From assembly GCA_963677895.2 (NCBI GenBank), contig CAXXGJ010000018.1, forward strand, positions 352,001-416,000: a stretch of DNA of 64,000 nucleotides, read 5' to 3'. The notes under the pieces are model-generated. The model was not told the origin of the DNA. It saw only the letters and a program-made list of their open reading frames with translations, and ran no database searches. The first letter of the stretch is position 1. Every line of letters starts with the position of its first letter. The stretch comes from Treponemataceae bacterium (GTDB lineage Bacteria; Spirochaetota; Spirochaetia; Treponematales; Rectinemataceae). This document shows, one piece after another, positions 13,569-31,606 of the stretch. Made by a program: the position numbers and the translations under genes.

Positions 13569-13638
13569 GCTCCCGTCAAGACGGGGAGAATTGGACGCTT
13601 ACAATGAATATGAAAATTATCACAGGTTCTAAAATTGA

Positions 13639-13751: not shown

Positions 13752-13831
13752 GTGATCTGCCACCCGAAAACTGGACACTCATAATGTCAATAATCGCATT
13801 TTAATGCGATACTACAGGAAGGAGCGGTCCA

Positions 13832-14059: not shown

Positions 14060-14079
14060 CGCTTGCCCGGAAGCATGAG

Positions 14080-14895: not shown

Positions 14896-14948
14896 TTTTC
14901 TAACTTGAAAAGTGTCCAGAAACTGGGGGACCTTCAATTCCACCTTAT

Positions 14949-15119
14949 TCAGTTTCTGTAGTGGTCCTGCTCGATGGGCTCAGCATAAATCTCGGACGAA
15001 AGGGCAAACAATCTGCCCATGTAGTCTGCCACATTCGCGGCTGGCAGCGATGTAAAAGCTTTTACAGGTTCCGGAGAAGGTAAATCGCGTTTCAGGAAGA
15101 CTCTAAATCCAACAGACAT
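14949..15119 (-). pseudogene. Truncated RraA/HMG-aldolase family gene
   Basis: MSVGFRVFLKR...LPAANVADYMGR N-terminus with RBS AAGGAG; the frame breaks after about 45 codons, next to the IS3 end. Confidence 0.65.
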
Positions 15120-15262
15120 ATAAGCTCCTTTGCGTCCTTTTTGAGCTTTATCAAAAATTGAATACCTGTGGGCTTTTTCAACAAAAAAACAAGTATCATC
15201 GTATATCACTGTGATCATCTTTAATTTTTCTAGGGTTTTTTCTCATCTTCATAGCGATACCT

Positions 15263-16321
15263 TCAGGCGCTAGTTTCGAAAAATGCTAAGCAAGGATTGC
15301 CAATAGCTGTCCAAAGTTGATTGTCTTCTACAATGATTATACTTGAATAGACAGTAAGACTGCCCTTTCCATCTTCATGCCTACAAATAGAGTTACATGG
15401 TCCATTTTCATGATCAGAAGCAATCTGTAGCATATCTTGAAAACGTAATGATCCACGTTTTAGTTGAAGCATCTCCATAGCTCTATCAAAGCGCGAATAG
15501 GTTGATGGATAATCCTTGTGGCTAGGGTTATATTTTTGTAGATCTGGGGAGTGGAAATGGTTGGTCCGGACCAATAAGCCATTTTCTTGTTCAATAATGC
15601 AGCATTGATTTTCTGTGGTTTCCACAACAACTGCCTTTTGATTATCAACTAATAATAAATTGGATCTTGTTACTTTATAAGGATTCTTGTCCCTAAGATA
15701 TGCTAAAGCATCATCTACATTCTTACAAATACGGAGCAGTGTATGAGGAGTAAAAGTAAATGCAAGATGTCCAATCAATTCTAAATCTAAGGGAATCCGT
15801 GTTGGACCAACTCCGGTTGTAGTTAGTGCAAATCCGTGATTATTTATACCGCTTCCTGGGAATGTGATACTTCCTGCCATATCTACTTCGGTAATCCTTG
15901 TTCCGTCGCTGAATTCTCGACTAAGTACTACATGAAGGACACGGTCATGCATATCACGGTTTTTTATAATATAGGTCTTTTTATCCAAGGTTGCAGAGCT
16001 ACTTGCAACTATTGCACTACACTCTTCAGAAGCCCTCATGCGCTCAGTAAAAGAGGAAAAATTGGCATTAAGTAACTTTATATCATATAAAGGGAGCTCG
16101 GAACCTTCAGCAATGCCGTTAATCTCTTCCTCAATTTCAGGGTTGTTTGAGAATACATTAGAAAAGAATTGATCAATCACTGAGTTATAGATAGCGAAAT
16201 CAACTCTTTTAGTTTTTAAAGAAGATTTTATAATTTCAATGTTCGTTTCGATCTGTTCTTTTGCTGACCGCCCATGAATCAATCCTTGCTCATAATAGGA
16301 ACCCAATAACTTGATTTCCAT
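15263..16321 (-). CDS. Peptidase C45 family (acyl-CoA:6-APA acyltransferase-like, Ntn hydrolase)
   Basis: G..HG, EI.GIAEG, ECSA autoproteolytic Cys, KNRD, GINNHG, RTNHF. Confidence 0.85.
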   Translation of the reverse strand: MEIKLLGSYYEQGLIHGRSAKEQIETNIEIIKSSLKTKRVDFAIYNSVIDQFFSNVFSNNPEIEEEINGIAEGSELPLYDIKLLNANFSSFTERMRASEECSAIVASSSATLDKKTYIIKNRDMHDRVLHVVLSREFSDGTRITEVDMAGSITFPGSGINNHGFALTTTGVGPTRIPLDLELIGHLAFTFTPHTLLRICKNVDDALAYLRDKNPYKVTRSNLLLVDNQKAVVVETTENQCCIIEQENGLLVRTNHFHSPDLQKYNPSHKDYPSTYSRFDRAMEMLQLKRGSLRFQDMLQIASDHENGPCNSICRHEDGKGSLTVYSSIIIVEDNQLWTAIGNPCLAFFETSA

Positions 16322-16758
16322 ATACTTCGCACCCTCCCAAGTAACTGATGTTCAGCTTTAAAATGTCGGATAAACAAATAATACAATTTACTAATAGTAC
16401 ATGTTCTCTACATTGTCAATGGTAATAACGAGACTTGGACTATTTGGGTTACATTCTCTCAGTTCAGCAGGATTTATTGAATATTAATGGGTGAAATAGT
16501 ACAGTCTATTTTAAATCAAAATTATCATGTCTCTAATAATACTTAATAATTTATTAAAATAGATGCAGTATGATGTCTATTCTAACACTTAGTCTATTTA
16601 ATTGTTTACTTCATAAGTTGCCTTACTACTCATTATTAACAATGCTGTTTAAAATTGTTGCATTTTCATATCGACCTGTAACTTAATTTGATTTCTCGAT
16701 TTCAATCTAAAACCTTGTATTAAGGAAAGCTATTGTTATTATTATTGATGAACTGGGG

Positions 16759-16786
16759 TTGACGAGTAACAATCTTTTGATATAAT
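16759..16786 (+). promoter_or_regulatory. sigma70-type promoter
   Basis: TTGACG-16 bp-TATAAT upstream of the RpiR gene. Confidence 0.55.
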
Positions 16787-16841
16787 CAATTGTAGAGGAT
16801 AGTGTCAATAATAATCTTAAGAGAAACGATCTTGAAGGCAT

Positions 16842-17702
16842 ATGATGAAAATTGAAGAAAGAATAAAAAACGCACGTTTGACGAAAAAAGCAAAGATAAT
16901 AACACAATTCCTGCTTGATCACCCTTCAGAAGCAGCGTTTATGTCAGCTACTAGTATAGCAAAAAAACTCAATGTCAGCGATGTTATGGTGATTCGCTTG
17001 GCTCGTACACTCGGTTACGATGGCTATTACTCTATGCAAAAGGATCTGCAACAGAAAATGATTGCAGAAATGGAGACAGCTCGAAAAAGGAAACCTTCAC
17101 TTTCAGAAAAAATTATCCATATTGGTAAAGAGCAGGACCAGAGTATCTCCGATATGACTTTGAGCAAAACATGGGAAAATTTGCAGGAGACTGTGTGGAA
17201 AAATCCTGATAGTAAATATGTTGATGCTGCAAAGATCCTGAGAAGCAGCCGTAAAAAATATATTGTTGGCTTTCGAGCAAGCGCTGCGATGGCGTTATAC
17301 CTTAGTATAAAGATGAGGTTCGTCTCTGATGATGTCATTACCCTAATGAATGCTGATCCAAATGAAGTGGATCAATTGTATAGTATGCAAGAGGAAGATT
17401 GCCTTGTTGTTTTTTCAATGGGACGATATCCGAGGATGTCGCTTTTTGCCATTGAGATTGCAAAAAAGCGCCGTGCTAAAATTATTGTCATTACCGAAAA
17501 AGAAACATCGCCTGCTGCTTTTGGAGTCGATATCGTTTTTATTGCTAAAAGCGATGGACTTAGCTTTAGCGCGTATGCGGGGCCATTGATTACGTGCGAA
17601 ATCTTAGTCACACATTTAGCAAAAGAAACTTGGCCTCTTCGTGAACTTAGGATTGCAGAGATAGATGAGGAGTATAGTCAGATGAATTTCTTTTTGACAT
17701 AA
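16842..17702 (+). CDS. MurR/RpiR family transcriptional regulator
   Basis: N-terminal HTH (IAKKLNVS..MVIRLARTLGYDGY) and SIS domain. Confidence 0.9.
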   Translation: MMKIEERIKNARLTKKAKIITQFLLDHPSEAAFMSATSIAKKLNVSDVMVIRLARTLGYDGYYSMQKDLQQKMIAEMETARKRKPSLSEKIIHIGKEQDQSISDMTLSKTWENLQETVWKNPDSKYVDAAKILRSSRKKYIVGFRASAAMALYLSIKMRFVSDDVITLMNADPNEVDQLYSMQEEDCLVVFSMGRYPRMSLFAIEIAKKRRAKIIVITEKETSPAAFGVDIVFIAKSDGLSFSAYAGPLITCEILVTHLAKETWPLRELRIAEIDEEYSQMNFFLT

Positions 17703-17806: not shown

Positions 17807-18298
17807 TTAAAACACTTTTGCCATAACTACACCAGAAATCATTATCAAGACAATACCTAATCCTAGCTCGAACACTAATCCCGATACTCTCGCTCTAAGG
17901 ATTTTTGCTTCTACTTCTTCTTTGTAACTCCTCCACGATGCCTCCGAGGTTCTCAAGGCCGTCACCAGCTCCAGCTGCATTTTCTCCGATTCGGCCGATT
18001 CTATCTTCGATTTTTCGAGCGCTGTCTGCAGGGATTCCAAGTCCTTCAAGAGCGCTTCTTTCTCGCTCCTCAATGCTTTCAACTGCGCCGATAGCTCCCT
18101 CGATTCCCTCAACGCTTCGCTGGCCTCCTTCTTCAAGTCCTCGTTCAATATCTTTAATTTCTCGATCACTGAGGCCGCTTCCTGGAGGAGTGCCTGATCG
18201 TCCAAGGCTTCCCACTTTGAATCCGATGACTGCGCCCCCAATGCCCATAAGCAGAAGAGCAGCAGCAATAAAAAAGAACTTAGTCTTCTTTTCCACAT
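17807..18298 (-). CDS. Secreted coiled-coil protein with C-terminal TM (spanin-like), 163 aa
   Basis: Start MWKRRLSSFLLLLLFCLWALGA; long heptad region; C-terminal hydrophobic helix; last gene of the module. Confidence 0.55.
   Translation of the reverse strand: MWKRRLSSFLLLLLFCLWALGAQSSDSKWEALDDQALLQEAASVIEKLKILNEDLKKEASEALRESRELSAQLKALRSEKEALLKDLESLQTALEKSKIESAESEKMQLELVTALRTSEASWRSYKEEVEAKILRARVSGLVFELGLGIVLIMISGVVMAKVF
17895..18296 (-). CDS. Nested alternative-frame membrane-anchored coiled-coil protein (i-spanin-like)
   Basis: GTG start 2 nt after the ATG of the host ORF; MEKKTKFFFIAAALLLMGIGGAVIG TM followed by helical repeats. Confidence 0.45.
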   Translation of the reverse strand: MEKKTKFFFIAAALLLMGIGGAVIGFKVGSLGRSGTPPGSGLSDREIKDIERGLEEGGQRSVEGIEGAIGAVESIEERERSALEGLGIPADSARKIEDRIGRIGENAAGAGDGLENLGGIVEELQRRSRSKNP

Positions 18299-18483
18299 TC
18301 CTTTCCCTTCAACGAGGCCACAAGACCCTTTATCGATTCGAGCGTCGTATATCCCGCCAGTACGAGCACGCCGAGCATGGCCGCAATCCCTGCCCATACA
18401 CCGGTCATCTCACCGTTCAGTGCCGCCGACCCCAAGCAACCCACCGAGCAGAGTGAGTAGAGGAGGGCGAGCCCTCTCCTCAT
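18280..18483 (-). CDS. Small two-TM protein, holin-like
   Basis: 67 aa, two hydrophobic helices, charged C-tail, RBS GGAG. Confidence 0.5.
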   Translation of the reverse strand: MRRGLALLYSLCSVGCLGSAALNGEMTGVWAGIAAMLGVLVLAGYTTLESIKGLVASLKGKECGKED

Positions 18484-18524
18484 AGACCACGCTCCATCCT
18501 ATTCCTGCAGGAAGCCAGATTTCT

Positions 18525-18962
18525 TCATGCTGCCCGCCTGAAAACACGCAAGGATTCGATCTTCCCGTTCTTAACCGTTCTCGAGTTTTTTATGGGATCC
18601 CATTTCACAAGCCTGAAGTGCTGGTGCTTTATCGCCTTATCCCTACAGCATTCTATCCATTCCCAGCCCTCGACTACTCTTTCCCCAGGCTTTGCCCTGT
18701 AGTCGGCATTCTCTTTGTCGCTCCTCCATCCTCGTTCACCGGTTACCAGTTTCATTAGCCCATCCCGGTCGGCCACATAACAATTGTCGGGGTTGTCCCT
18801 GTTCTCCTCGTCGTACTCGATGAAGCCCCGCCTTATCCCTTCCAGGATCAGGTTTACCGCCTCACCCTCCGTCAGCCCGGGCTTCCCCAGTTCGCAGATG
18901 CACAGTGCCAGGCAGGCTCCTTCCCCCAATTCGGCAAGGAAGGTCTGTATGCCTTCCCTCAT
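18525..18962 (-). CDS. Phage lysis-region protein (DUF261-like, possible Cys/His hydrolase)
   Basis: GIQT...LGEGACLALC N-terminus; HF...WDP..NSRTVKNG C-terminus; position in the lysis block. Confidence 0.45.
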   Translation of the reverse strand: MREGIQTFLAELGEGACLALCICELGKPGLTEGEAVNLILEGIRRGFIEYDEENRDNPDNCYVADRDGLMKLVTGERGWRSDKENADYRAKPGERVVEGWEWIECCRDKAIKHQHFRLVKWDPIKNSRTVKNGKIESLRVFRRAA

Positions 18963-19333
18963 GGCCGATCCCCAGAGCCCCTTGCTCCCTTAGCCTTGCC
19001 TTCTCCCTTTTCTTGCCCCGCCAGGCTTTCGAGAAGATACTCGTCAAACTCCTTCTTGGCCCCCTCCATCAACTCGATAGCCTTGTCCACATTACCGTTG
19101 CACTCGCCATCGCGCTGTGCTTCGAGCGTTGCCTTCAGGCTCACTATCTGCGGTCCCTGCAACCTGAAAAGGATCGTCACGTTCGATCGCATACAGATGA
19201 GTTCAGAGAGGATCTTTTCCATGCTTCGCTTGGAGTTGAAGAGCCATTTCAGGTTTAGCCAGATCGCCCCGATCATCGCCGCGGCGCCAATCCCGGCCGC
19301 CGCATCCATCAACTTGTCCAGCATCGGGTTCAT
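18959..19333 (-). CDS. Phage membrane protein (single N-terminal TM, holin/antiholin-like)
   Basis: MNPMLDKLMDAAAGIGAAAMIGAIWLNLKWLF followed by a soluble helical domain; ATGA overlap with the next gene. Confidence 0.5.
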   Translation of the reverse strand: MNPMLDKLMDAAAGIGAAAMIGAIWLNLKWLFNSKRSMEKILSELICMRSNVTILFRLQGPQIVSLKATLEAQRDGECNGNVDKAIELMEGAKKEFDEYLLESLAGQEKGEGKAKGARGSGDRP

Positions 19334-19353
19334 TCCCGCCTGCCTTATTTGTA

Positions 19354-20475
19354 TCAGCCTGAACGCAGCGCTTCCCAAAGCTCATTGGTTTCTGCGAGGG
19401 CAGCGCTGAAGGCTCCTTTCGCGGGGCGCCCGAAACCCAAACGGATTCCGGGACCATCCTTTGTCCATCGTTCTTCTATGGATTCAATCGGTACGGTGTA
19501 CCAATGGTCGAATGCTTTTACGCTACAGAGATCTCCCAGGAAATAATCCCTATCTAGAACGATAGGCGATCCTGGCGGTACTTCGGCTTCGAGACAAAAA
19601 GTCGTACCATAGTTGCCTAACCGCGCAGCGCCATAGCTCCTTAAACTTTCATCATCCTCACAAGCCCAGGCTTCGAGCTCTCTCTCAAATCGCAATGTTC
19701 CTGACGGTTCCTCTCCTTCCCAAATAGTCGCCTTTATTCTTCCTTCATTCGTTTTTGCGCCCCGCAGATACAGCGTATTGCTGTATCGCGAATTTCCTTC
19801 TATGAGACTCGCGCCGCTAAGGCTGTCATAGTCTTCAGAGAACAGGGCACGCCCGTTTGTTTCCTGCGCCGCGCTCCGGTCGGTGCCAATAAGGATATCG
19901 AAAGCCATCGTCCTCGTGCTCGCGTCAAAATCAATCGTGAATCCAGTTTCCGTGGCTTTACCGCAACGGGATAGCTCTGTAAGCATGTTCGAAAACGCAC
20001 ATCGCAGTGAAATTTGTTTCCCTCGCTCCTGATTTGCTTTAAGGCGAAGGCATTCGAATTTACGTGTTTCTCCGGCATCCATGCAGCATTCTCTGGCCAC
20101 GATCGTCTTCATCACCGTTTCAACGGGAGCGGTCGCTTCAAAAAAACCTGAGAGTTCGTCGGGTATCACCAATCTTCTTCCAAGAATGCTCTTCGCCTCA
20201 TATCCCCTGGCGATAATCCACGGTGTTCCTTTTTTTAATCGTTTCTTCTCCGTCTCCACGATGATCCCGAGCCGTTTTCCGGAATTCCCCGCAACTATGA
20301 AATTCCCTGGCTTTAAGGCAGAATCTTCGGCTTTATCCAGTGGCATCGAAAGCGCAAAATCACCCGGCGCTAAAAATCTGCGTACGTAATAGAATTCTCC
20401 GAAAGCATCAATGTCAGCCAATAGATCAAGCTGTTCACTAAAAATTCTTATGGGAATCGTGGCGTTCATCGTCAA
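19354..20475 (-). CDS. Siphovirus ReqiPepy6 Gp37-like baseplate hub/tail protein
   Basis: R.F...GDF.L, GII, L.RR, GTDRS..Q...ALFSEDYD, SG..RFE, DY.LGD motifs. Confidence 0.75.
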   Translation of the reverse strand: MTMNATIPIRIFSEQLDLLADIDAFGEFYYVRRFLAPGDFALSMPLDKAEDSALKPGNFIVAGNSGKRLGIIVETEKKRLKKGTPWIIARGYEAKSILGRRLVIPDELSGFFEATAPVETVMKTIVARECCMDAGETRKFECLRLKANQERGKQISLRCAFSNMLTELSRCGKATETGFTIDFDASTRTMAFDILIGTDRSAAQETNGRALFSEDYDSLSGASLIEGNSRYSNTLYLRGAKTNEGRIKATIWEGEEPSGTLRFERELEAWACEDDESLRSYGAARLGNYGTTFCLEAEVPPGSPIVLDRDYFLGDLCSVKAFDHWYTVPIESIEERWTKDGPGIRLGFGRPAKGAFSAALAETNELWEALRSG

Positions 20476-21935
20476 GCCTCGAACTTATATCCCCAACTCA
20501 CGTTGCTTCCGGCCGTAATTACTACGAGTACTCCATCATCATTTTTGTAGATAAATTTTATGCAATCATTTTCGGGTATTTCCCATTTCTTTATCCAGCT
20601 TGCACCCATATCATTGCTAATGTATATTTTTCTGCGGCATCCCATATAGATGGTTGTTCCATCGACAAAGATTGCTGAATAATCTATTTGTCCATCAATT
20701 TCCCTGCCATCATCCCAGGTAATCCCATAGTCCGTACTTTTAAAAAGTTTTGCGTTGTGCTCTAGCCCTGCTAAAACTATGCCGTTTCCTATGTGCTTAA
20801 TAAAAGTATATGGGTATTCTTCTATCCCCGTTGATTTTACTTCTGCCCATGTTACGCCGGAGTCAGTCGATCGAAACATTTTCCCGCTGGCATAACTTCC
20901 AGCGAGTACCACCGTCCCGCCAACACTCTCCATTACTTTTAATCCTTCATTGCTGCAAGTTCCGATATAGCTCCATGTTAATCCGCCATCTATAGAGCCG
21001 ATTATCTTATCTCGTGAAGATCCCGTTGCGATAATGTTTGATGTGCTGAGGACACAGAATGTGTCGATGAATTCTTCGTACTCAGAATCCCATACCTCTG
21101 TCCATGGACTGAGATAATAAGATGATGCCCTGAATATTTTACCATCTGTTCCTGCTAAATATGCTGATCCAGTATTGGCCAGGCTACGAATACTAGTGCT
21201 CACCGTAATTTGATCTATATTTTTCAGAGTTATTCCATGATCGTTGCTGTAAGCCAAGTGGTTGTTCTTATCATATCCAGCAAGTACTACATCACTTTCA
21301 AGCCGCAGCGCACAATTGATAGTCCCTGTCTCTAAACTATGATTTTCGACATGCATGAACTTTACAAAGGAAATTCCGTTCTGACCTGCATTCAGCGCAT
21401 CAGCCTTCGCTTTTATTATCCTTCCATAAACCTGCCCTTCTACAAGCGCATCGATCGAGTCGCTGTTCGTTATAAAGACCGGCCTCATCTGCCGCTCATC
21501 GGTCAGCGTCAGTACATTCGGCCCCGCCGAATGATCGATAAGGATTTTTTCCACTTCGATGTCATCATCGCTTAGGTAAAGGGGCGCGACAGGGTCATCG
21601 GCTTCCCCCCCTTTTAGAACAGTCGCCACCATCGTCCGCCGGTATCGATCGATGCATATGGCGATCCTGTCATACCGCTTTTTCCCAAGCGTTGGCTCAT
21701 CCAAGGTCAATGATAGTGGCGATGTGTTTCTATAATAGACGCCTCCCTTCATCGCCACGCCTTTTCCCATAGTGATCGTGAAACTTCCATCTGATGTCAC
21801 CGCGAAAGCATCATCGGAATGCGCCAGAATTCCATCGGCGCGCTGCATAGCCTCGTGAAGTTTTTCGTTCATGAATCGCGCCGTATATTTCCTGTCGCCC
21901 GCAACCCCGGTGAAGAACCCGGATTCTTCCGCCAT
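20472..21935 (-). CDS. Phage baseplate/receptor-binding protein with Asp-box beta-propeller
   Basis: N-terminal MAEESGFF...GDRKY...RYDRI phage structural motif; Asp-boxes SNDHGIT, SIDGGLTW, STDSGVTW, STDYGITW, SNDMGASW. Confidence 0.7.
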   Translation of the reverse strand: MAEESGFFTGVAGDRKYTARFMNEKLHEAMQRADGILAHSDDAFAVTSDGSFTITMGKGVAMKGGVYYRNTSPLSLTLDEPTLGKKRYDRIAICIDRYRRTMVATVLKGGEADDPVAPLYLSDDDIEVEKILIDHSAGPNVLTLTDERQMRPVFITNSDSIDALVEGQVYGRIIKAKADALNAGQNGISFVKFMHVENHSLETGTINCALRLESDVVLAGYDKNNHLAYSNDHGITLKNIDQITVSTSIRSLANTGSAYLAGTDGKIFRASSYYLSPWTEVWDSEYEEFIDTFCVLSTSNIIATGSSRDKIIGSIDGGLTWSYIGTCSNEGLKVMESVGGTVVLAGSYASGKMFRSTDSGVTWAEVKSTGIEEYPYTFIKHIGNGIVLAGLEHNAKLFKSTDYGITWDDGREIDGQIDYSAIFVDGTTIYMGCRRKIYISNDMGASWIKKWEIPENDCIKFIYKNDDGVLVVITAGSNVSWGYKFEA

Positions 21936-21944
21936 ATCCTCTCC

Positions 21945-22832
21945 TTATGCTTCCAGATGTCTCCCTGCAAATTCAAACAGTGCTTCGGATCCTTCCCCGG
22001 GGGAGTCATCGCCAATTTCGATGATATTTTCTCCCGGCTTGAGCTGCCAGAACGTCGATAAAAGGTCCATGTAATGCATCCCGTTGCTTTCTATGCCATG
22101 GCGGTGCAATGTTATGGTTCTGTTGACAGGTTCCGTGTTCACCTCCAAATACTCTCCAGCGGCAATAATGCCTGAAATCCTTAAGATCTCCCCGCTTGTC
22201 GTATTCCGGATGAATGGATTAACGATGGGCCCGCTGAAGCGAATTCTTAACGGCGCCGCAACATTTCCTTGATTGTTGATAGTCTTCGTCCTGTTTCCCG
22301 TGTGCAGTATGGTGGCGAATTCGATACCGTCCTCATCGAACTCGATCCCTTCCTCGCTGAACTCTGTCAATGCCGCAAAGTAGGCAACCTCGGAAACTTG
22401 AGGCTCTATATCTATGAAATAGGGCTGCCTGCAGACAAATTCCACCGAGAATCGCTGCCACGCCTCACTCCATGAACGTTTGACAAAGATTGGCTCACGC
22501 GAGGGCTGCGCCCCAATCTTCCGCCGCCTTCCCAGTCGCTCTACAAACAAGGTTCCTTCCCTCGTATGAATCTTCAATGCCTCACAGATAGTTCTTCTTT
22601 CCGACGCTTCATCTGCCTCCTCGAGCCCCTCGCAATCGATAGCTGCGTCTATCGCTATGTACCGTGGTCTTGTCGTTGTTGTTATCGCAATAACGCCATC
22701 AATCCCCGGTCCTTCCGAAACGCTTATCCCCAGCGGAGGCGTTTCAAGCCCCGATGCTGTAATCAGCTTAAGCCTTCCCGTACCGAAGGATACCTCCTCT
22801 TCGTCGATCGTTCGAAAGGTAAGCACCGTCAC
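21945..22832 (-). CDS. Distal tail protein (Dit, Sipho_tail family)
   Basis: GIDG..., F.C..PYF, INNQGNV.AP..I...GP..NP.I.N, FWQLKPGEN.I. Confidence 0.8.
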   Translation of the reverse strand: MTVLTFRTIDEEEVSFGTGRLKLITASGLETPPLGISVSEGPGIDGVIAITTTTRPRYIAIDAAIDCEGLEEADEASERRTICEALKIHTREGTLFVERLGRRRKIGAQPSREPIFVKRSWSEAWQRFSVEFVCRQPYFIDIEPQVSEVAYFAALTEFSEEGIEFDEDGIEFATILHTGNRTKTINNQGNVAAPLRIRFSGPIVNPFIRNTTSGEILRISGIIAAGEYLEVNTEPVNRTITLHRHGIESNGMHYMDLLSTFWQLKPGENIIEIGDDSPGEGSEALFEFAGRHLEA

Positions 22833-22981
22833 CAGTCCTCTCCAAAGGCGATGAGCCTCGATACTCTTTCGCTCTCTCGTTTTTCTTCCAGGAGATCGGG
22901 AACAACCTCATGTTCAATGGTATTCGCCATCGTTTCATCGCTTGATTCATCGTTCCTGGGTTCCTTTTTTTCGATCGCCAT
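22829..22981 (-). CDS. 50-aa mini-ORF at the tail tube/tape measure position
   Basis: ATG overlaps the upstream stop (TGATG); its stop overlaps the Dit start (GTGA). Confidence 0.5.
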   Translation of the reverse strand: MAIEKKEPRNDESSDETMANTIEHEVVPDLLEEKRESERVSRLIAFGEDW

Positions 22982-23346
22982 CACCGCATCCTTGCGCCTG
23001 AATAGCGCGATACAAGGCGGCTCCATTCTGGCCGGCCGGCATCATGGCGTACCGTCGCTTCATGATGAAACCCAATATTCTCCATCGCAGTATCGACACG
23101 ATCGGCAAGCTCATAAGCGCATCCTTCTGCAATCATCCCTATGGTGCATTCCCACATCTCTGCGATAACGCTTGTCTCGCCTTCCAGAATCGGTGCGCCC
23201 CTCGCGAGTTCAATAAGCATAAGGGGAGGGGAGTAAGGCGCCTTCTCTGCAGGGTTCCCTACAATAATTCTGTCGGCCGATCCCACCAGCTCAAGTATCC
23301 TTGCATTCTCTGCCAGTAAGGAGCGTATATCCGTTCTACCGCTCAT
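22981..23346 (-). CDS. Putative tail terminator/completion protein
   Basis: 121 aa; IR.LL....I..LVG..DRI...P......P and A..VD..M...GF pattern; position after the head connectors. Confidence 0.55.
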   Translation of the reverse strand: MSGRTDIRSLLAENARILELVGSADRIIVGNPAEKAPYSPPLMLIELARGAPILEGETSVIAEMWECTIGMIAEGCAYELADRVDTAMENIGFHHEATVRHDAGRPEWSRLVSRYSGARMR

Positions 23347-23639
23347 GCCGACTCATCTTCTTTTTCAAGCGTGGCTTCCGTATGCTTAGGAAAACGGCGT
23401 GCTTCAATCACCCTGAAAAGCCCCCTTGTGCAGGTAATCCGATCATTCATGCCGATTTCGATCTTTTCTCTCGTGATGAGCGATAGGCGCTCCTTTCGTC
23501 CCATACCTTGCTTCTCGCTTCTCGCAGGCCATAGGCGAGCCCTGATTGTCCCTCCCGCCTCGTAGGTAGCTTTGTATGCGTGGCATGCATCGAAAGAGAG
23601 CGAGTATTTCAAGAGCTCCACTGCCTCAATGTTCCTCAT
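23343..23639 (-). CDS. Putative head-closure (stopper) protein
   Basis: 98 aa; I.A.L.P, I...DRI....G.F.V pattern; ATGA overlaps on both sides. Confidence 0.5.
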   Translation of the reverse strand: MRNIEAVELLKYSLSFDACHAYKATYEAGGTIRARLWPARSEKQGMGRKERLSLITREKIEIGMNDRITCTRGLFRVIEARRFPKHTEATLEKEDESA

Positions 23640-24124
23640 ACCCGTTCCAGGAGCACCTGTGCCGGGCACCGAATGTGCGCCGATAACAGCCTGTAAATGG
23701 AAGGAAAACGCCGTACCGTTTCGGCCCCAGCCGCATACCTTCGCGTTACTCCGCCTTCTCTCTCTTCCTTTAAATATCCACCCTCGCTCTCGCTCGCCGC
23801 TAGAATGCCGGGATCCACGAGCTCAAGGAGTGCGGCCTCGCACTGCGCTTCGATAAGCCACTGTGGTATCGCGCCGCTCCAAAGCGCTTCCATTCCATAC
23901 CGGGGGTATGAAAGCCGCTGTATCTTCGAAATCCTCGCTCCTGGCCAAAGACCGCCATACATCCGTTCCAGATAGTCACAGGCGCGGATCAGGGCCGCAC
24001 TTTTGGCATCGATACCTGCATTTCCCCATGACGTATTTCCTCGCAGCAGATGATAGCTATCAGCCACACTCACTTCCGTGTAGCTGTCGGCCCCGGCAAG
24101 CCCGCTCCCGTTCTCGATTGTCAT
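23636..24124 (-). CDS. Head-tail adaptor (DnaT-like phage protein family)
   Basis: MTIENGSGLAGADSY..V..AD.Y...RG...W...K.AALIRA.DYL, Q.L.YPR, IP..L..AQCE.AL. Confidence 0.75.
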   Translation of the reverse strand: MTIENGSGLAGADSYTEVSVADSYHLLRGNTSWGNAGIDAKSAALIRACDYLERMYGGLWPGARISKIQRLSYPRYGMEALWSGAIPQWLIEAQCEAALLELVDPGILAASESEGGYLKEEREGGVTRRYAAGAETVRRFPSIYRLLSAHIRCPAQVLLERV

Positions 24125-24669
24125 GCCATGTACCCGTAGACCGTCACCACAAGATCGCTGCCCTCGGCAAAATCGCCGTCGGCCATGACATCGATGCCCT
24201 TCCCGGCACGGCATCCAAGCGACATCCCAAACTCAGCCTCAAGCGTAACCCCTTCGGATGCGGGGCCAATGTAATTGCCCGGAATAAGTTGGGTTGCCAG
24301 AATACCCGCAAAACGGTAGATGAGATCGGTTCCCGAATCGGTGATATATACCTTCGTTCCTGTTCCTCCCGTCCAGGCAGTCTCGCCGTCGAGGAGGAGA
24401 AAGAACCCCAAGGGATAGATCTTCTTTCCCTCGGGGATATCCGCTTCCAAAAAGCTATGGACTCGTGTGCCGGCCGTGAGCGCGGGCAATCGTATCGTCT
24501 TTGAGAAAAATTCCTGCCCACCCGCCTCGGCGCTTTTAATCGTGTTTACCGATTCCTCAAGCTCTTCCAGAGCCTTTCCCAGCCTCATCAGCTCCTGCCC
24601 CAGAAGCGCTCTCTGTCCATCGGGGCTCAAGCGGTCGAGAATCCCTGCCTTGTCAGGATCAAGCGCCAT
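24121..24669 (-). CDS. Hypothetical phage protein (possible capsid decoration)
   Basis: Directly follows the coat gene; beta-rich C-terminal part; RBS AGGGGGA. Confidence 0.5.
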   Translation of the reverse strand: MALDPDKAGILDRLSPDGQRALLGQELMRLGKALEELEESVNTIKSAEAGGQEFFSKTIRLPALTAGTRVHSFLEADIPEGKKIYPLGFFLLLDGETAWTGGTGTKVYITDSGTDLIYRFAGILATQLIPGNYIGPASEGVTLEAEFGMSLGCRAGKGIDVMADGDFAEGSDLVVTVYGYMA

Positions 24670-24678
24670 GCTGTCCCC

Positions 24679-25821
24679 CTAACCTAAGAGCAGGCCGACA
24701 TGCTCATGCATCACTACCTTGAACCCCCACGCCAGGTGCAGCTCCCAAGTGATCTGCCCGTACTGGGCGATTTCCAGCAGCAGGTAAGAGAGGCCGCGAA
24801 GATCCGAAATTATGGCCTGGATCATGGTCGGATTCTCGGGCATCACCGGAGGTCGCATAATCCCCACCACTGCTTCCCGCTCGAAAGCCAGGCAGGGCGT
24901 GTAGCTGTCGCCGATCGTTATGGCACTTGAGGTGTCGATACCCAGTCGTACTCCCGGTCTTCCGATCGTGAGCAGCTGCTGCATGGCGGTTATCTCGTTG
25001 TGGTTGATGTACCGATTGGTGTCACCCGCGAAGGCGATAATGTCGCCTTCCTTTATGATCCCCGTTCCCGAAGCTCCCGACAGCGTCGTGCTTACGTCGC
25101 CTTTGACCATCGCCTTCGTCGCGTTCGTCAGATAATTCGCGCCCGTCCCCTTCACATGCTGCGCGATCTGCGCGCTCGTGCGAATCTGAAATCCAAACTG
25201 ACGCTTGATGACACCGCTCCGCCGCTCCTCGTCGCTACCCGCCGCGTAAGCCTGCTGAATTGCCGAAAGCTTCAACAGGTTCGTCTCGGCGCCAGAATCG
25301 CAGACGAACTGCGGATCGGCCATAGCGCAGCCGTTATCCTTCAGAATCCTCCGAACCGCGATCAGATCATCCAGGGATGAGGCAAAAGGCGTCGTCCCCG
25401 CCACGCCCGCCGCTCTTGAGGCCCCATGAACAATCGCCGTCACGCAGTCAGCTTCCGCCGCATTCCTTAAGGAGCGCATCTCCTGCATCAACTTTAGCCT
25501 GAGCCACTCCTTGTCGGTCCCTGAGTTCTCAAGACTCCGCCGCTGCTCTCCCGTCAGATGCCAGCTCCGCTTCTTCGACGCCGTGATCTTCACGTTCACC
25601 GTCGACGCCGAATCCGAATCCCCCTGGGGCGTCACGTTCCCCGGAATAAAATCCACCGGCGTTCCGCCCGAAGCGATCGGCACCGCCACAATATCGTCTT
25701 TAGCCACCTGCTTGTCGTCGAAGCTCATGGTCACCGCCTGCAGGGCTCCCGTATCTTCTGCTGAAACCTCCTGCGCCGCTGAAAACAGAATCGGCGCAAG
25801 ACTTGTGAATACATTGGACAT
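24679..25821 (-). CDS. Major capsid protein, P22 coat-like (HK97 fold)
   Basis: MSN.FT.L.P.L..A...VS.E..G, AG.AGTTPF, R.IL.DNG, W......AWG.K......LLG. Confidence 0.85.
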   Translation of the reverse strand: MSNVFTSLAPILFSAAQEVSAEDTGALQAVTMSFDDKQVAKDDIVAVPIASGGTPVDFIPGNVTPQGDSDSASTVNVKITASKKRSWHLTGEQRRSLENSGTDKEWLRLKLMQEMRSLRNAAEADCVTAIVHGASRAAGVAGTTPFASSLDDLIAVRRILKDNGCAMADPQFVCDSGAETNLLKLSAIQQAYAAGSDEERRSGVIKRQFGFQIRTSAQIAQHVKGTGANYLTNATKAMVKGDVSTTLSGASGTGIIKEGDIIAFAGDTNRYINHNEITAMQQLLTIGRPGVRLGIDTSSAITIGDSYTPCLAFEREAVVGIMRPPVMPENPTMIQAIISDLRGLSYLLLEIAQYGQITWELHLAWGFKVVMHEHVGLLLG

Positions 25822-25837
25822 CTTCTAATGCAGAGGC

Positions 25838-26575
25838 TCAATCCTGATTGAGCGTGCCTCCATGCGCGATAAATGCTGCGCGTTCCTTTGCCGGTAGCCC
25901 CCAAAACTGCTCTACAGCCATGCCGCTTGTCATGTCTCCCGCCACCGGAGCTCTATGCTCCCCGGCGCCGCCCCCCGCGTTCTCCTTCGCGGCGATAAAC
26001 TCCTTCCCTTCGTCGGAAGCCAGAAACTCTTTCACCCAATCAGGCAAATTCTGTTTCTGCTCCACACCATCTCGTGTGAATCTCGCCACTGCCGTCCTGA
26101 TATCTCCCTCTCCCTCAACCGCAAGGATACCTTTCTCTTTGATCAAAGCTTTAGCCGCTCCAATCAGCGAAGGTTTTACATTGGCCTTGGATAGTTCGGC
26201 CGTAAGGCCAGAGTCGAGCAGAAGCCTTGTTACCGCGGCCTTCTCTTCATTGAGATTCTTTGTGAGCAATGTTTCCTTATCGGTGCTTTGTCGTGTAGCG
26301 GCTTCGAGAAGTTTTTCCTTCTCGGCGAGAGTGGCTTTCGTGGTTTCGAGCTCGGCCTTCAGCGTCTCGGCCTCGCTGATAACCTTCTCTAGCTCCTCAG
26401 GGCTTTTCCCTGAGAAGGCCTCCATGCGCCGTTCGAATTTCTTGATCCTGGCCCAGTCGCGGGAGGCGAGAGGCTCGATCCTGTCCACGAGGGAGATGAT
26501 CAATTCCTTATCAGCGCTCTCGCCCTTCTCCAGCTCGAATTTCAGATGAGTAATGATGTCTTTCAGACTTGTCAT
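25838..26575 (-). CDS. Phage scaffolding protein
   Basis: Coiled coil; C-terminal GGGAG...F..L...ERAAFI..GG; immediately upstream of the coat gene. Confidence 0.7.
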   Translation of the reverse strand: MTSLKDIITHLKFELEKGESADKELIISLVDRIEPLASRDWARIKKFERRMEAFSGKSPEELEKVISEAETLKAELETTKATLAEKEKLLEAATRQSTDKETLLTKNLNEEKAAVTRLLLDSGLTAELSKANVKPSLIGAAKALIKEKGILAVEGEGDIRTAVARFTRDGVEQKQNLPDWVKEFLASDEGKEFIAAKENAGGGAGEHRAPVAGDMTSGMAVEQFWGLPAKERAAFIAHGGTLNQD

Positions 26576-26817
26576 TGGTCATGGTCTATCGTCGGGGGTA
26601 ATATCCGCCCCGCCGGCCGTGCGCAAGGTCTATTGGAAGGTTCTATCGCTTTTGCAGGAAATGCGCGTTACCTGTAAAAGCGGGCAGGCAGGAATTTTCC
26701 GTCCTGTACGGATCGCATGGCAGGTTTGCTACCATAGGTGTATGATAAAGTATACATCACTTGCATGTAAAGAGGGCAGTATCTTATAATCTATTTTTTG
26801 ATTGTTTTTAAAATTTC

Positions 26818-27936
26818 TTACATGTTCCAGATAGCTTTAAAAGCATCTATTATCAAATCCTCATCACCTATTTGTAAACCAATTGGATTTATTACAATTA
26901 TGCCTTTGTTAAGATAGAAAGATGTTACATATATAGGTGGATTGTTCTGTAATAGATGCTTAGCAATTTCGAATGCAGATAATCCCATTTTTTTTTCATC
27001 TATTTTAATCTGTATACGTGGAACCGGTCTTCCAACTTCGTCTGGAAAAATTCTCTTAAGGACGGTATGTGGAAGATTTTTCAAGGAATCTTGTATGAAC
27101 GAGACTTTTGATTCCCATATTTTCTGCTCAGCTTCGTGGTTCCTATTCATATATATTTCTAAAGCTGTAACTAAGCCTATAATTTCTTCTTTACCTACTT
27201 TCATTGGCCGTCCAATTCCATATTCAGGCCCGGCTTGGAGCCGACATGATTCTATAAGATCCTTATCTCCAAATATAAATCCTGTTCCTGGTGGACCATA
27301 AATGTGCTTAGCTCCACTTACAGACACAAGGTTTGCTCCCATAAGCGAATAAGCTCTTAATTTTTCTGGAGGATAATTTGCTACTGCAGCATCTATAATT
27401 ACTGGAATTTTGTGATCTTTACCAATTTGTATGAATTTTTCTAGTGATACCATCCCCAAATCGTTAGATAATTCACTAAAGGCATATAATAAAGCTACCG
27501 TATTCTCGTTTATTGAATACTCAATTTCTTCTATTCTTGTTGAAGATGGCAATCCAACTTCGATAACCTTGACGCCAGTTAGTCTGATGCCTTGATCATA
27601 TCCAGTTCTTTGTCCTTTCTGGATAATTATCTCCGATCCATTAGCTGCTGCCGGTAAATCTAGCATCTTAGCTGTATTACTATGTGTTATACATGCGGAT
27701 ACTGCAAGAAGAAGTCCTGCAGCTGCACCAGAAGTTACGAGAGCTGACTCAGCATTTATAAGTTTTGCAATGGCATTACCGGCGCTCTTGTGAAGTTCAG
27801 TCATATCGATATAGCTTTTTGCAGCTTCAACCATAGAGTTGAGAACAGCATCATCCATGCAAGATCCGCCTAATCTGGAATTATTCGCAGAGGCATTAAT
27901 TACTCTTTTGACTCCTAGAGTTTCATAAGTTGCCAT
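26818..27936 (-). CDS. SelA-like PLP enzyme (DgaE / D-glucosaminate-6-P ammonia-lyase family)
   Basis: VINASA..SRLGGS, VTSGAAAG, IIDAA, SGAK, IGRPMKVGKE. Confidence 0.82.
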   Translation of the reverse strand: MATYETLGVKRVINASANNSRLGGSCMDDAVLNSMVEAAKSYIDMTELHKSAGNAIAKLINAESALVTSGAAAGLLLAVSACITHSNTAKMLDLPAAANGSEIIIQKGQRTGYDQGIRLTGVKVIEVGLPSSTRIEEIEYSINENTVALLYAFSELSNDLGMVSLEKFIQIGKDHKIPVIIDAAVANYPPEKLRAYSLMGANLVSVSGAKHIYGPPGTGFIFGDKDLIESCRLQAGPEYGIGRPMKVGKEEIIGLVTALEIYMNRNHEAEQKIWESKVSFIQDSLKNLPHTVLKRIFPDEVGRPVPRIQIKIDEKKMGLSAFEIAKHLLQNNPPIYVTSFYLNKGIIVINPIGLQIGDEDLIIDAFKAIWNM

Positions 27937-27948
27937 ATCTTCCCCCCA

Positions 27949-28677
27949 TCATAATTGTTCAGTTAATTCTTTATTATTTTTGCTGTTGTATGTCTTTTTG
28001 ATATTTTGAAGGTGCTTATTAAAATGATCGTATAAGATTTCAAGTGCTTTTTTCTCATTTCCTTTAATGAATTGATCTAATAGTCTCCTGTGATCATCAA
28101 TTGAAATTCTAGCAGAGTTAGTAAATGATTCTTGCATAGACAAATTCCTAAGAATGTTGATATGAAGACGTAAATCATCGATTATATTCTTAATCCAGAC
28201 ATTGCCAGATGCTTCATAGATAAGTTCATGAAACTTGATATCAGCATCCATGTAGTCTTGGTAGCTGCTAGTATCAATGAGTTTTTCAGAAATATCTATC
28301 GCTTCTTTCATTTTCTCAAATACCCTCGGTTCTTTAATAGATAGCATTTTTTTTATAGCAAGTTCTTCTAAAGCTACGCGCACTTCAATTATAGATTCAA
28401 TTTCTTTTATGCTTAACTTTCTCACAAAGTAGCCTTTCCAATGTACTTTTTCTACTATTCCTCTTTCAACGAGAAAGGAAAGAGCTTCACGAACTGAAAT
28501 ACGGCTAATTTTTGTTTCATCTGAAAGCTCTTGATCATTAATTCGATCGCCGGGCAGCCAATGACCTTCAAGTATTGCTTTTGTAATAATAAGGCTTAGG
28601 CTCTCTGAACGGCTACGCGAAAGCATTGATACGTCAGAGGAAAATCTTGTTGTTTTTATATTTTCATCCAAATTCAT
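27949..28677 (-). CDS. GntR/FadR family regulator
   Basis: PGDRI, ISRISVREAL HTH; FCD domain FHE.I...SGN. Confidence 0.9.
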   Translation of the reverse strand: MNLDENIKTTRFSSDVSMLSRSRSESLSLIITKAILEGHWLPGDRINDQELSDETKISRISVREALSFLVERGIVEKVHWKGYFVRKLSIKEIESIIEVRVALEELAIKKMLSIKEPRVFEKMKEAIDISEKLIDTSSYQDYMDADIKFHELIYEASGNVWIKNIIDDLRLHINILRNLSMQESFTNSARISIDDHRRLLDQFIKGNEKKALEILYDHFNKHLQNIKKTYNSKNNKELTEQL

Positions 28678-28952
28678 GATTAGTTACCTCAAAATATTAG
28701 AATATTTTAATAAACGAAATTTCTTTATCCAGAATTTGCAAATATTCAAATAGTTGCATATATAGTTCAACTGCTATTATGTATTCTATTTTTTTATAGC
28801 TCAATTTCTTTAAAACCACAACTCATCATAATATATATATTATTATAATGCAATAGTTTTAAATTTAAAATTTATAATTGACAATATTCAAAACTTGACT
28901 TATGGTTGTTTATATAGATTAGGTCTCTTGAATTGGGCTTAAGGAGCGTAGA

Positions 28953-29684
28953 ATGGTACAGCCTATCCTTGAATATTGTGGAGTAGATAAAAATTATAAA
29001 AATTTGCATGTCTTAAATGGAGTTACTTTCAGCATTGAAAAAGGGGAAACTGTTGTAATCATTGGAAAGAGCGGTTCAGGTAAAAGTACCCTTTTAAGAT
29101 GTACAAATATGCTTGAGCCAATTCAAAACGGTCAAATTCTTTATAAAGGGAAAAATGTTAATACTTATAAACCCAGAGATTTAAGAGAGGAGATAGGGAT
29201 CGTTTTTCAGAGTTATAATTTGTTCCCTCATTATACAGCATTAGGAAATTGTAGTTTAGCATTAAGAGTTGTAAAAGGAAAATCGAAAGAAGAATCAGAT
29301 GAAATCGGCATGGAAATGCTAAAAAAAGTTGGGCTAACAAATAAAGTTGATTGTTTCCCTCAGCATCTGTCAGGTGGCCAACAGCAACGTGTAGCAATTG
29401 CTCGCTCTTTGGCATTAAATCCTTCAATAATGATGTTTGATGAAGTAACCTCTGCTTTAGATACTGAGCTAATTGGAGAAGTTTTGCGAGTAATGGAAGA
29501 TGTAGCACTCGCAGGAATGACAATGATAGTAGTAACTCATGAAATGGGTTTTGCGAGACATGTTGCAAGTAAAATTGTGTTCTTAGATGAAGGTATAGTC
29601 ACTGAAACAGGATCGCCTGATCAAGTTTTTGATAATCCAAAAAATGAAAACTTGAAAAATTTTTTAAATGCGATTTTAAAATAA
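28953..29684 (+). CDS. Polar amino acid ABC transporter ATP-binding protein
   Basis: GKSGSGKST, LSGGQQQR, DEVTSALD, VTHEMGFA. Confidence 0.93.
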   Translation: MVQPILEYCGVDKNYKNLHVLNGVTFSIEKGETVVIIGKSGSGKSTLLRCTNMLEPIQNGQILYKGKNVNTYKPRDLREEIGIVFQSYNLFPHYTALGNCSLALRVVKGKSKEESDEIGMEMLKKVGLTNKVDCFPQHLSGGQQQRVAIARSLALNPSIMMFDEVTSALDTELIGEVLRVMEDVALAGMTMIVVTHEMGFARHVASKIVFLDEGIVTETGSPDQVFDNPKNENLKNFLNAILK

Positions 29685-29718
29685 CTCAAATAGCTCTGGT
29701 TGTATTAAGGAGATTTAT

Positions 29719-30192: not shown

Positions 30193-30200
30193 AATATAAT

Positions 30201-31560: not shown

Positions 31561-31606
31561 GCGATTCAAGGCTGAAAATAGGGCATTTCATGCTATACTG
31601 CAGAGC

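Follow-up and report, generated by a model that had tools for sequence, protein, structure and literature searches.

The tail tube and the tape measure count as indispensable components of the siphophage tail, and delivery of siphophage DNA normally requires the tape measure. The gene transfer agent of Rhodobacter capsulatus (RcGTA) has a very short siphophage-type tail in which the stopper, terminator, tube and Dit (distal tail protein) rings share one fold, and its DNA is ejected into the periplasm (PMC7296036). In Brachyspira, BhGTA/VSH-1 is described as a head-tail-lysis cluster with no adjacent terL, a putative terL lying outside the cluster (PMC9662315). The integrative cf-PICIs are reported to encode their own capsid, portal, terminase, adaptor and connector, and are described there without a complete tail (10.1101/2025.02.11.637232).

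The window analysed here, a 64,000-nucleotide stretch of contig C18 in a Treponemataceae assembly (GCA_963677895.2; genome G000), contains at 17807-26575 a block of 15 ORFs, all on the minus strand in the ORF listing of the window (Table 1). The initial annotation had described co-oriented ORFs joined by stop/start overlaps, and all seven overlaps that it quoted were found, -4 overlaps at p182/Ad1, Ad1/Hc, Hc/Tt, p50/Dit, RBP/Tal and 18962/18959 and a -1 overlap at Tt/p50. Its statement that the block lacks terminase, portal, major tail protein, chaperone and tape measure genes was confirmed by Pfam, PHROG and tblastn searches. Its description of the operon as intact is not quite true, given the in-frame stop in the small two-TM gene, and the block is not GC-rich, its GC content (0.525) being slightly under the genome mean (0.56); the compositionally foreign part is the flanks (0.36 and 0.32). 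The assembly of the block is sound: in run X1, possibly the source of the window DNA, one contig spans 15500-29500 with no differences, and in run X3, from another study, a 7,778-base contig covers 18763-26540 with three differences. Judged by its gene content, the block is the putative virion (head, neck and tail-tip) and lysis operon of a cargo-laden att/integrase island, and very probably the late operon of a temperate, tRNA-integrating family that arose from a long-tailed siphophage through one old deletion.

Table 1. Features of the island within the window, in order of position.
Feature	Position	Strand	Evidence or remark
17-bp att core, element-end-like flank	1433..1449	-	possible left end
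Left AT-rich metabolic cargo (peptide ABC, peptidases, RpiR) with IS66 and IS3	2148..17702	.	
Fully overlapping membrane-anchored coiled-coil ORF pair, 163 aa and 133 aa	17807..18298, 17895-18296	-	
Two-TM holin-like gene, 82 aa in kin	18280..18528	-	broken by in-frame TAG 18501-18499
DUF261 protein, 145 aa	18525..18962	-	Atlas score 0.97 to DUF261 clusters
124-aa protein, N-terminal hydrophobic segment	18959..19333	-	no Pfam/PHROG match; conserved in family
Tal/baseplate hub (ReqiPepy6 Gp37-like), 373 aa	19354..20475	-	PF14594 E 1e-44; phrog_538
Tip protein, 487 aa, conserved N-terminal domain and BNR-repeat C-terminal region	20472..21935	-	BNR/Sortilin Pfam
Dit (distal tail protein), 295 aa	21945..22832	-	phrog_33 E 2e-25; PF22768, PF05709
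p50, 50 aa, in tube/tape-measure slot	22829..22981	-	conserved in 8 loci
Tail terminator Tt, 121 aa	22981..23346	-	model pLDDT 87; Foldseek
Head closure (stopper), Hc1-like, 98 aa	23343..23639	-	hhalign of A8 vs L044 protein 95%, E 2e-8
Head-tail adaptor Ad1, 162 aa	23636..24124	-	phrog_477 E 5.7e-31; PF20557 DnaT_2 E 2e-28
p182, N-terminal helix and jelly-roll	24121..24669	-	model pLDDT 74; Foldseek
Major capsid protein (MCP), 380 aa, P22-coat Pfam family	24679..25821	-	phrog_283 E 3.7e-60; PF11651
Head scaffolding protein, 245 aa	25838..26575	-	phrog_206 E 3e-7
Promoter-like sequence and structured 5' leader of virion operon	26576..26775	-	conserved, aligned in 10 loci
Metabolic/ABC cargo with IS66 and IS3 copies	26818..46423	.	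Pfam
Tyrosine integrase, 457-aa open frame	46910..48283	-	91% identity to C30 element's integrase
att repeat, tRNA-Thr(CGT) 3' half	48397..48442	-	

Among siphophage tail components, a Dit and Tal tip, a stopper and a terminator are present in the block, and the major tail protein (MTP), chaperones and a full-length tape measure (TMP) are absent. The head-closure protein of the long-tailed locus L044, to which the stopper was aligned, itself matches phrog_25 (head closure Hc1, E 9e-4). Compared by sequence with solved structures, Tt gave no match below E 0.25; the top Foldseek matches of its model include lambda gpU, T5 p142, the Milano and phiXa necks and RcGTA, and these terminator matches rule out Tt as a tube protein. 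The N-terminus of the 487-aa BNR protein matches the gene that follows Dit in long-tailed kin, and this protein is probably the receptor-binding/upper-baseplate protein. A Tal scan of viral contigs yielded no confirmed case. In 10 of the 10 loci that span the junction, Tt is followed by Dit with no tube or tape measure gene between them; a small ORF of 43-62 aa (p50) intervenes in eight (window, C30, L004, L005, L011, L013, L022 and G014) and nothing in two (L019 and L028). Tt and Dit are separated by 149 bases in the window versus 3.7-5.0 kb in the nearest long-tailed kin, whose gene order is Hc-Neck1-Tt-MTP-chaperones-TMP-Dit, and an ORF of at least 450 aa lies directly upstream of Dit in 70 of 80 outgroup loci. 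The deletion would have taken Neck1, the major tail protein, the chaperones and all of the tape measure but its tip.

The C-terminal ~22 aa of p50 resemble the tape-measure end helix of long-tailed kin. Scored on an HMM of tape-measure ends, the window p50 beat 500 of 500 shuffles, yet reached 4.6 bits only; among the eight p50s, seven outscored 493 or more of their 500 shuffles, and that of L022 failed (131/500). Among 44,517 ORF ends ranked with the same HMM, the window p50 came 98th and the C30 p50 11th. Alignment of p50 with the L044 tape-measure end gave 73% in hhalign, and the best matches of a p50 HMM in 69 TMPs were the last residues of those of L043 and L044. A p50 profile returned nothing at E<=10 among longer proteins, which is weak evidence, and no usable match in the Atlas. 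The pooled dN/dS of p50 was 0.32, falling to 0.15 over the last 22 codons. This weak likeness, in the right position, hints that p50 may be a tape-measure remnant.

The initial annotation had pointed to the rest of the genome as a place for orphan tail-tube genes, and none that is tube-like was found in G000. The 747 ORF queries from 63 long-tailed loci, searched for orphan tail and packaging genes, gave 16 match bins in G000, which from query sizes and contexts read as Tal itself and as Clp protease-like, peptidase-like, small accessory-domain and small-gene matches. Neither G000 nor G014 (99% complete, 5 contigs) yielded an MTP or TMP at any other site, and searches with the L044 MTP, PF10145 and PF03237 matched only the terminases of C30 and G014. 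These searches bear on the main rival to a virion without a tube, namely that the missing parts are borrowed: a satellite would make its own head, neck and tip, and a co-infecting long-tailed helper, e.g., one of the kin L042-L048, would provide the tube, chaperones, Neck1 and tape measure. Satellites that take tails or supply partial tails do exist, such as cf-PICIs (10.1101/2025.02.11.637232) and EPIPs (PMC12822802). Long-tailed kin share Dit, Tal, the tip N-terminus and lysis genes with the family, and a replication initiator was recognised in the C30 element only, with none between integrase and terS in G014. We nevertheless consider this reading unlikely, since no helper MTP or TMP was found in G000 or G014 (where a lytic helper would not show), the p50 stub is under selection and would be expected to compete for the Tal hub with the full tape measure of a helper, and the elements, unlike cf-PICIs, span tens of kb with their own terminase, portal and lysis genes.

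In the Dit tree, whose branches reach 1.5 changes per site, a 98/95 branch sets the nine tube-less Dits apart as a deep clade, and does so in 100% of the bootstrap trees, the outgroup having been picked with an alignment of non-family matches, which favours a clean split. Wherever dS was measurable, dN/dS was 0.03-0.44, and the bootstrap confidence intervals of p50, Tt, Dit, scaffold and MCP all stayed under 1; calculated against relatives, these ratios are uninformative on the most recent history of the window copy. The proposal of the initial annotation that the tail modules were lost by streamlining and not by random decay is thus upheld, the reduced gene order being clade-wide and under purifying selection. 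That the family forms no working virion and persists as integrated islands of cargo, with the window copy as a decaying remnant, is improbable in view of purifying selection that covers head, neck, tip and lysis genes and extends to comparisons with saturated dS, of modules swapped between elements (L011 pairs a window-like head with a C30-like neck) and of the conserved promoter and leader. Such a dead end would fit the loss of packaging and replication genes, the premature stop and the four IS copies of the window island, the split integrase of C30, and the lack of a portal within 10 kb upstream in five close relatives (L011, L012, L016, L018 and L024); decay of the window copy taken alone is likely.

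Constraint is strongest on capsid and scaffold, with dN/dS of 0.04-0.08 (MCP 0.044 vs L011; scaffold 0.067 vs L012, CI 0.04-0.11). In the leader, 88% of cells are paired, a value reached by 0 of 500 shuffles, and Rfam gave no credible match, only one at chance level (E 4.6). Remote-fold searches were confined to Tt and p182. For p182, the KHP40 cement protein and the Pam1 capsid chain ranked second and fourth in Foldseek (TM 0.4), the remaining top matches being plant-virus jelly-rolls; the gene is missing from C30, L011 and G014. Its model suggests an optional, cement/decoration-like protein, and the jelly-roll fold and optional presence rule out a diverged tube protein. The constraint on the head also weighs on the idea of a defensive decoy, in which terminator, Dit, Tal and a mini tape measure would poison the tail assembly of related long-tailed phages. 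Prophages and satellites are reported to defend by tail-assembly inhibition (PMC11364771), and a tape-measure tip without its body would be a natural dominant-negative candidate; with capsid and scaffold most constrained, terminase, portal and lysis genes kept in relatives, and known Tai systems not shown to look so, we regard a decoy as quite improbable.

A dedicated integrase, which the initial annotation had found missing, exists at the level of the element, beside the tRNA-Thr att repeat. The full tRNA-Thr(CGT) gene lies at C18:428821-428893 and a further att copy at C18:334711; the island possibly measures ~47 kb with its left end at 1433..1449, or ~66 kb with the C18:334711 copy. Integration sites differ, the G014 element using tRNA-Gly with a 49-bp repeat. 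The slot of the right-hand cargo holds replication, terS, terL and portal genes plus cargo in relatives; terS, terL and portal are carried 4-12 kb upstream by five of them (C30, G014, L004/G069, L005/G070 and L022), and integrase/att, terminase, portal and capsid all occur in C30 and G014, with lysis genes in G014, as expected of temperate tailed phages at family level. In the window, tblastn of this cargo region revealed no terminase or portal; L012 shares 25010-34804 at 88-92% identity, IS66 excepted. C18 is devoid of terS, terL, portal and any replication gene of the C30 type, in line with the earlier observation that no replication gene is present. As to packaging genes elsewhere, the only terminase found in the assembly sits in a second element, on contig C30. 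This element is probably from another strain because its chromosomal flank is only 94% identical to that of C18; its integrase is split in two frames, and the contig ends before the lysis genes. The initial annotation had merged two absences: the tail modules are missing family-wide, and terminase and portal are missing in the window copy only. Since relatives carry their own packaging genes within the element, the latter absence is a defect of the window copy and not the design of the family, and the window copy is probably non-autonomous.

These data also bear on a domesticated GTA whose packaging genes would lie at another chromosomal site, as in VSH-1/BhGTA, where the putative terL is placed outside the cluster (PMC9662315). 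The lack of terminase, portal and replication genes beside the block and the strong purifying selection would suit such an agent, which is nonetheless highly improbable and largely refuted by its distribution: MCP occurs in 1 of 68 other host-family genomes and 0 of 2 congeners, and Dit in 3 of 401 genomes of the order including the window's, one of the three being a long-tailed phage, a pattern at odds with vertical inheritance. Integrase and att sites at tRNAs speak against an endogenised, non-mobile agent, as do the relatives' own packaging genes and the probable foreign origin of the only terminase-bearing element in the assembly. ComEC is present in G000 and G014 and also in 10 of 14 controls, and is therefore non-discriminating; FlaA searches matched no genome, controls included, and are uninformative as a check on a spirochaete host. 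Of the options offered initially, the short-tailed particle is the best reading, and the domesticated GTA gives way to patchy, mosaic att/integrase islands.

Regarding the lysis genes, the 124-aa protein may be holin-like, and the DUF261 protein is probably the endolysin, judging from its slot, occupied by an M23 peptidase in G014. The two-TM gene is 97.5% identical to the L011 protein with one stop, leaving a 67-aa ORF from 18483. Both frames of the overlapping, possibly spanin-like pair are open in L004, L005, L011, L022 and G014, and in the long-tailed L042, L045 and L048.

For the complete members of the family, we give a particle with zero tube rings about an even chance. Its head would be full-size and of the HK97 fold, and the stack of portal, adaptor, stopper and terminator would rest straight on the Dit ring; p50, as a ~20-residue tape-measure end, would plug the Tal hub, the BNR protein would bind the host, and DNA would leave through a tail of minimal length, its destination probably being the periplasm as described for RcGTA. 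The 4-5 kb saved would be available for the variable cargo between portal and scaffold. A complex prediction of three Tt with three Dit(1-146) chains scored 0.44 versus 0.00 for the best control, with at least 82% of contacts shared between runs and partner pLDDT of at least 76; the mark applied is reached by 116 of 157 solved pairs and 2 of 215 mismatched pairs, and at scores of 0.60 or less by only 18 of the 157 solved pairs and both mismatches. The prediction lends slight support to a terminator seated on Dit, and may reflect likeness to solved tails. Against such a virion, there is no evident trans-envelope conduit gene and no ejection-protein-sized gene replaces the tape measure. Pfam and PHROG searches of the 15 ORFs matched no podophage nozzle/needle or ejection protein. 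The best overall explanation, which we hold with evenly divided confidence, combines the deletion family, the virion without tube rings and a packaging-defective window copy, a derivative that would fill no particles by itself and move only with a complete sibling. That complete members are autonomous, setting a siphophage neck straight on a siphophage baseplate in a podophage-like shape and delivering DNA with no tape-measure conduit, with catabolic/defence cargo in the head space gained and packaging-less copies riding along, falls slightly short of an even chance.

A lineage without both tube and tape measure would be a ready test of the role of the tape measure as ruler, plug or membrane conduit, and the family bears on the shrinkage of long tails to short. 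If the proposed virion is real, structural biologists would gain the smallest injection device of siphophage type; if the family instead borrows its tube and tape measure, it would represent a satellite strategy distinct from cf-PICIs and EPIPs. Annotation would score such elements as incomplete or defective prophages despite an ancestral reduction. The interest rests with the family, the window copy being probably a non-autonomous derivative.

The searches made found no match for this tube-less tail type, and a literature search by title and abstract, with thin coverage of subscription papers, returned no precedent. F-type tailocins, consisting of tube, tape measure and tip without capsid, are ruled out by the presence of a capsid and the absence of tube and tape measure. 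Siphophages with Dit/Tal (ReqiPepy6 Gp37-like) tips, namely L042-L048, Paenibacillus phage Dash (Fernvirus), Methanoculleus virus L4768 and Clostridium phiCD6356, share with the family the adaptor, stopper, terminator, Dit, Tal and a tape-measure end motif before Dit, the uncultured L042-L048 also sharing the tip-protein N-terminus and lysis genes; unlike the family, they have Neck1, a major tail protein, chaperones and a tape measure of 690-1100 aa, and their heads are different, the window MCP having no match in L043-L048. Phages that combine a phrog_283 capsid with a DUF4055 portal include Synechococcus Ssp-JY42, Acinetobacter qsb1 and Rhizobium P106B, with capsids to which the window's is 51-33% identical and complete-looking records of mostly 47-56 kb, and the same-phylum prophages L141 and L142. 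Labelled by size and position, the L141 genes comprise a full tube and a tape-measure-like ORF of 792 aa and those of L142 a tail of myophage type, and both prophages carry an extra head-morphogenesis-sized gene between portal and scaffold, where the window family has cargo. RcGTA is vertically inherited, has a small head and retains five tube rings and a tape measure, whereas in the window family a tube gene is missing, the head is predicted to be of a full-size type and integrase/att sites are present. VSH-1, with its 65-nm flexible tail and conservation across Brachyspira, is set apart by description, not sequence. Finally, cf-PICIs measure 10-18 kb, carry no genes for lysis and acquire their tails complete; membership of that class is ruled out by an island of ~47-66 kb with lysis-like and tail-tip genes, the window family keeping terminator, Dit, Tal, receptor-binding and lysis genes of its own.

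The window corresponds to G000:C18:352001–416000, and its virion and lysis block comprises 15 ORFs, all on the minus strand between window positions 17807 and 26575. They encode a scaffold, the major capsid protein (phrog_283), a 182-aa protein (p182), the adaptor Ad1, a stopper-like protein of 98 aa, a 121-aa protein, a 50-aa ORF (p50), the distal tail protein (Dit), a BNR tip protein of 487 aa and the baseplate hub (Tal), followed by the five ORFs of the lysis region. The 121-aa protein has a predicted fold like that of tail terminators (Tt), and for the protein of 98 aa the match is a head-closure protein from a long-tailed relative. As a tube protein, p182 was ruled out, being jelly-roll and cement-like. 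As the initial annotation had stated, neither terminase, portal, tube nor tape measure is present in the block, nor is a chaperone, and all the stop/start overlaps that it quoted are present. Mis-assembly is excluded, since a contig from a second study runs across the key junction and differs at 3 positions in 7.8 kb. The operon is not intact and free of disruption as had been described: the holin-like two-TM gene (82 aa in related elements) carries an in-frame stop at 18501–18499. Nor is the block GC-rich, its value of 0.525 lying slightly below that of the genome (0.56); the foreign DNA is that of the flanks.

In the lysis region, the M23 peptidase occupying the corresponding slot in G014, another genome of the family, suggests that the DUF261 protein is a phage endolysin. 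The overlapping ORF pair, with both frames open in tube-less and in long-tailed kin, is spanin-like but differs from Rz/Rz1 in size. At the other end of the block, the leader shows hairpins with covarying pairs and perhaps a 5-bp pseudoknot; its covariation exceeded that of 500 of 500 shuffles, although the structure was derived from the same sequences and the pseudoknot pairs hardly vary. This leader matched no Rfam family and may possibly regulate scaffold translation or late transcription.

Features of the window island and their positions
Feature	Window position	Strand	Remarks
Overlapping ORF pair, 163 + 133 aa	17807–18298	minus	Starts 2 bases apart; full overlap
DUF261 gene	18525–18962	minus	Slot holds M23 peptidase in G014; slot observation also covers L007:6582–7205
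Promoter-like sequence and leader	26576–26775	minus	Conserved in 10 loci
Tyrosine recombinase (integrase), open, 457 aa	46910–48283		Adjoins copy of tRNA-Thr(CGT) 3' half

A dedicated integrase, reported as missing, is present outside the block (see table). Additional att copies at window position 1433 (17-bp core) and at C18:334711, on the same contig, show that the block belongs to a 47–66 kb island in a tandem array. The islands at tRNA-Thr(CGT) extend over G000:C18:334711–428893 of the source assembly, every one with catabolic and ABC cargo; the integrase of the island upstream has an internal stop, and the ARAGORN tRNA-Thr call at window 48397–48473 is an att half-copy. In the place where its relatives carry terS, terL and portal, the window island has a 20-kb stretch of metabolic cargo with IS copies.

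Besides the window copy, the capsid gene occurs once more in the source assembly (contig C30, 77%) and in one of 68 other family genomes (G014, 69%); it was found in neither of two congeners. Further relatives comprised 2 IMG/VR contigs, 17 metagenome loci and 1 genome contig; among the metagenome loci, 4 are distant (capsid identity 51–63%), L014 duplicates L005, and 8 stop before Dit. Tube and tape measure are absent from the Tt-to-Dit interval in all 10 loci showing both genes, and an ORF of 43–62 aa lies there in 8 of them, the exceptions being the mutual near-copies L019 and L028. The five relatives in which the packaging region is visible (C30, G014, L004/G069, L005/G070 and L022) do carry terS, terL and a DUF4055 portal, 4.3–11.8 kb upstream of the scaffold gene with variable cargo in between; no portal was found in the 10 kb examined of five further relatives. 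Therefore, the loss of the tube characterises the family, and that of the packaging genes characterises the window copy. The proposal that the missing modules reflect streamlining thus stands for the tube and fails for packaging. The window copy is unable to package DNA alone and is in early decay. The C30 element, which additionally carries SbcCD-like and replication-initiator genes, probably comes from another strain; it cannot be assumed to be a same-cell helper, since its chromosomal flank shares just 94% identity with that of C18 and assembly contamination is 5.5%.

Several features of these relatives were also recorded. L028 is a short contig assigned to an uncultured Pelobacter assembly, which points to either a broader range of hosts or an error in binning. 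The cargo slot holds an error-prone polymerase-like cassette in L004 (4059–8984, from translations only) and restriction-modification-like genes in L005 and L018. A second, integron-like integrase lies upstream of terS in C30, L022 and G070. A repeat of about 130 bp in the C30 (G000:C30:18859–19039) and G014 (about 823.3 kb) elements recurs in about 40 copies along the AT-rich contig C39, where it resembles the attC sites of a large integron array.

The dN/dS check gave values (Nei-Gojobori) of 0.03–0.44, not near 1, for all gene pairs with measurable dS, with bootstrap intervals below 1 for p50, Tt, Dit, scaffold and capsid; for p50 the pooled value was 0.32, and that of the last 22 codons 0.15. 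Modules have been exchanged between elements of the tube-less family, and the Dit profile matched 3 of 401 genomes of the order, one match being an unrelated long-tailed prophage. This is the distribution of a rare mobile lineage. The suggested orphan-gene search was answered for the tail: neither the rest of G000 nor the nearly complete G014 yielded a gene for a tube or a tape measure. The initial annotation had named a domesticated GTA among its options; vertical inheritance is a GTA criterion in PMC9662315, and the rare, mobile distribution departs from it. The block belongs to a tailed phage element and is not a GTA, and its significance lies in the tube-less family rather than in the window copy.

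The origin of this family was traced with 80 outgroup loci, obtained from a Dit profile search and a viral-contig scan with next-of-kin alignment. In 70 of them, Dit is directly preceded by an ORF of 450 aa or more; in 3, Tal takes this place with the tape measure before it, and the remaining 7 have a shorter ORF, mostly near contig ends. The closest loci (L042–L048) encode a stopper, Neck1, Tt, a 301-aa major tail protein, chaperones, a tape measure and Dit, and have tip and lysis genes in common with the window; in L042, L045 and L046, unusually, Tal stands between tape measure and Dit. A Dit tree was built from the 9 tube-less sequences and 38 of the 80 outgroup ones; a branch with 98/95 support sets all tube-less Dits apart, a split that the choice of outgroup favours. 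More remote capsid relatives from other parts of the phylum carry complete tails.

The C-terminal ~22 residues of p50 are similar to tape-measure ends of the long-tailed outgroup. With an HMM built from 58 distinct ends, 7 of 8 family ORFs beat at least 493 of 500 shuffles, that of L022 failing; absolute scores were low, the window p50 ranking 98 and that of C30 11 among 44,517 ORF ends. The reverse HMM found its best matches in the last residues of the L043 and L044 tape measures, hhalign gave 73% for one chosen pair, and the database search for longer proteins matching p50 returned nothing. Where p50 lies and how it overlaps Dit strengthen the case, and p50 is a probable, rather than proven, tape-measure stub.

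Tape-measure ends plug the Tal hub, and p50 would be the plug in a particle consisting of a full head on a neck and baseplate. In RcGTA, according to PMC7296036, stopper, terminator, five tube rings and Dit are one fold stacked in series, and DNA goes into the periplasm on release. With the tube rings removed from such a stack, the terminator would face Dit. The complex prediction for three Tt and three Dit N-domains scored 0.44 (best control, 0.00); 82% or more of the contacts agreed between runs, and the partner pLDDT was 76 or higher. Among test pairs, the mark for support was reached by 116 of the 157 solved and 2 of the 215 mismatched ones, those at 0.60 or under being 18 of the 157 solved pairs and both mismatches. 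The prediction lends weak support to a Tt/Dit contact, and its score may stem from likeness to solved tails. RcGTA DNA is taken up via host competence proteins, which might likewise offer a way through the envelope in the absence of a tape measure; ComEC occurs too widely to carry weight here.

The main rival to a tube-less particle is a satellite borrowing tube and tape measure. Partial-tail parasitism is known from cf-PICIs (10.1101/2025.02.11.637232) and EPIPs (PMC12822802), but neither retains both a complete tip and a lysis module. A decoy like Tai (PMC11364771) would not account for capsid and packaging genes being conserved more strongly than the others. No precedent for a tube-less siphophage-type virion was found in the literature searched, whose coverage was incomplete. 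The 38 Treponema prophages described in PMC11144348 are myoviral or siphoviral, and the siphoviral clusters have tape measures.
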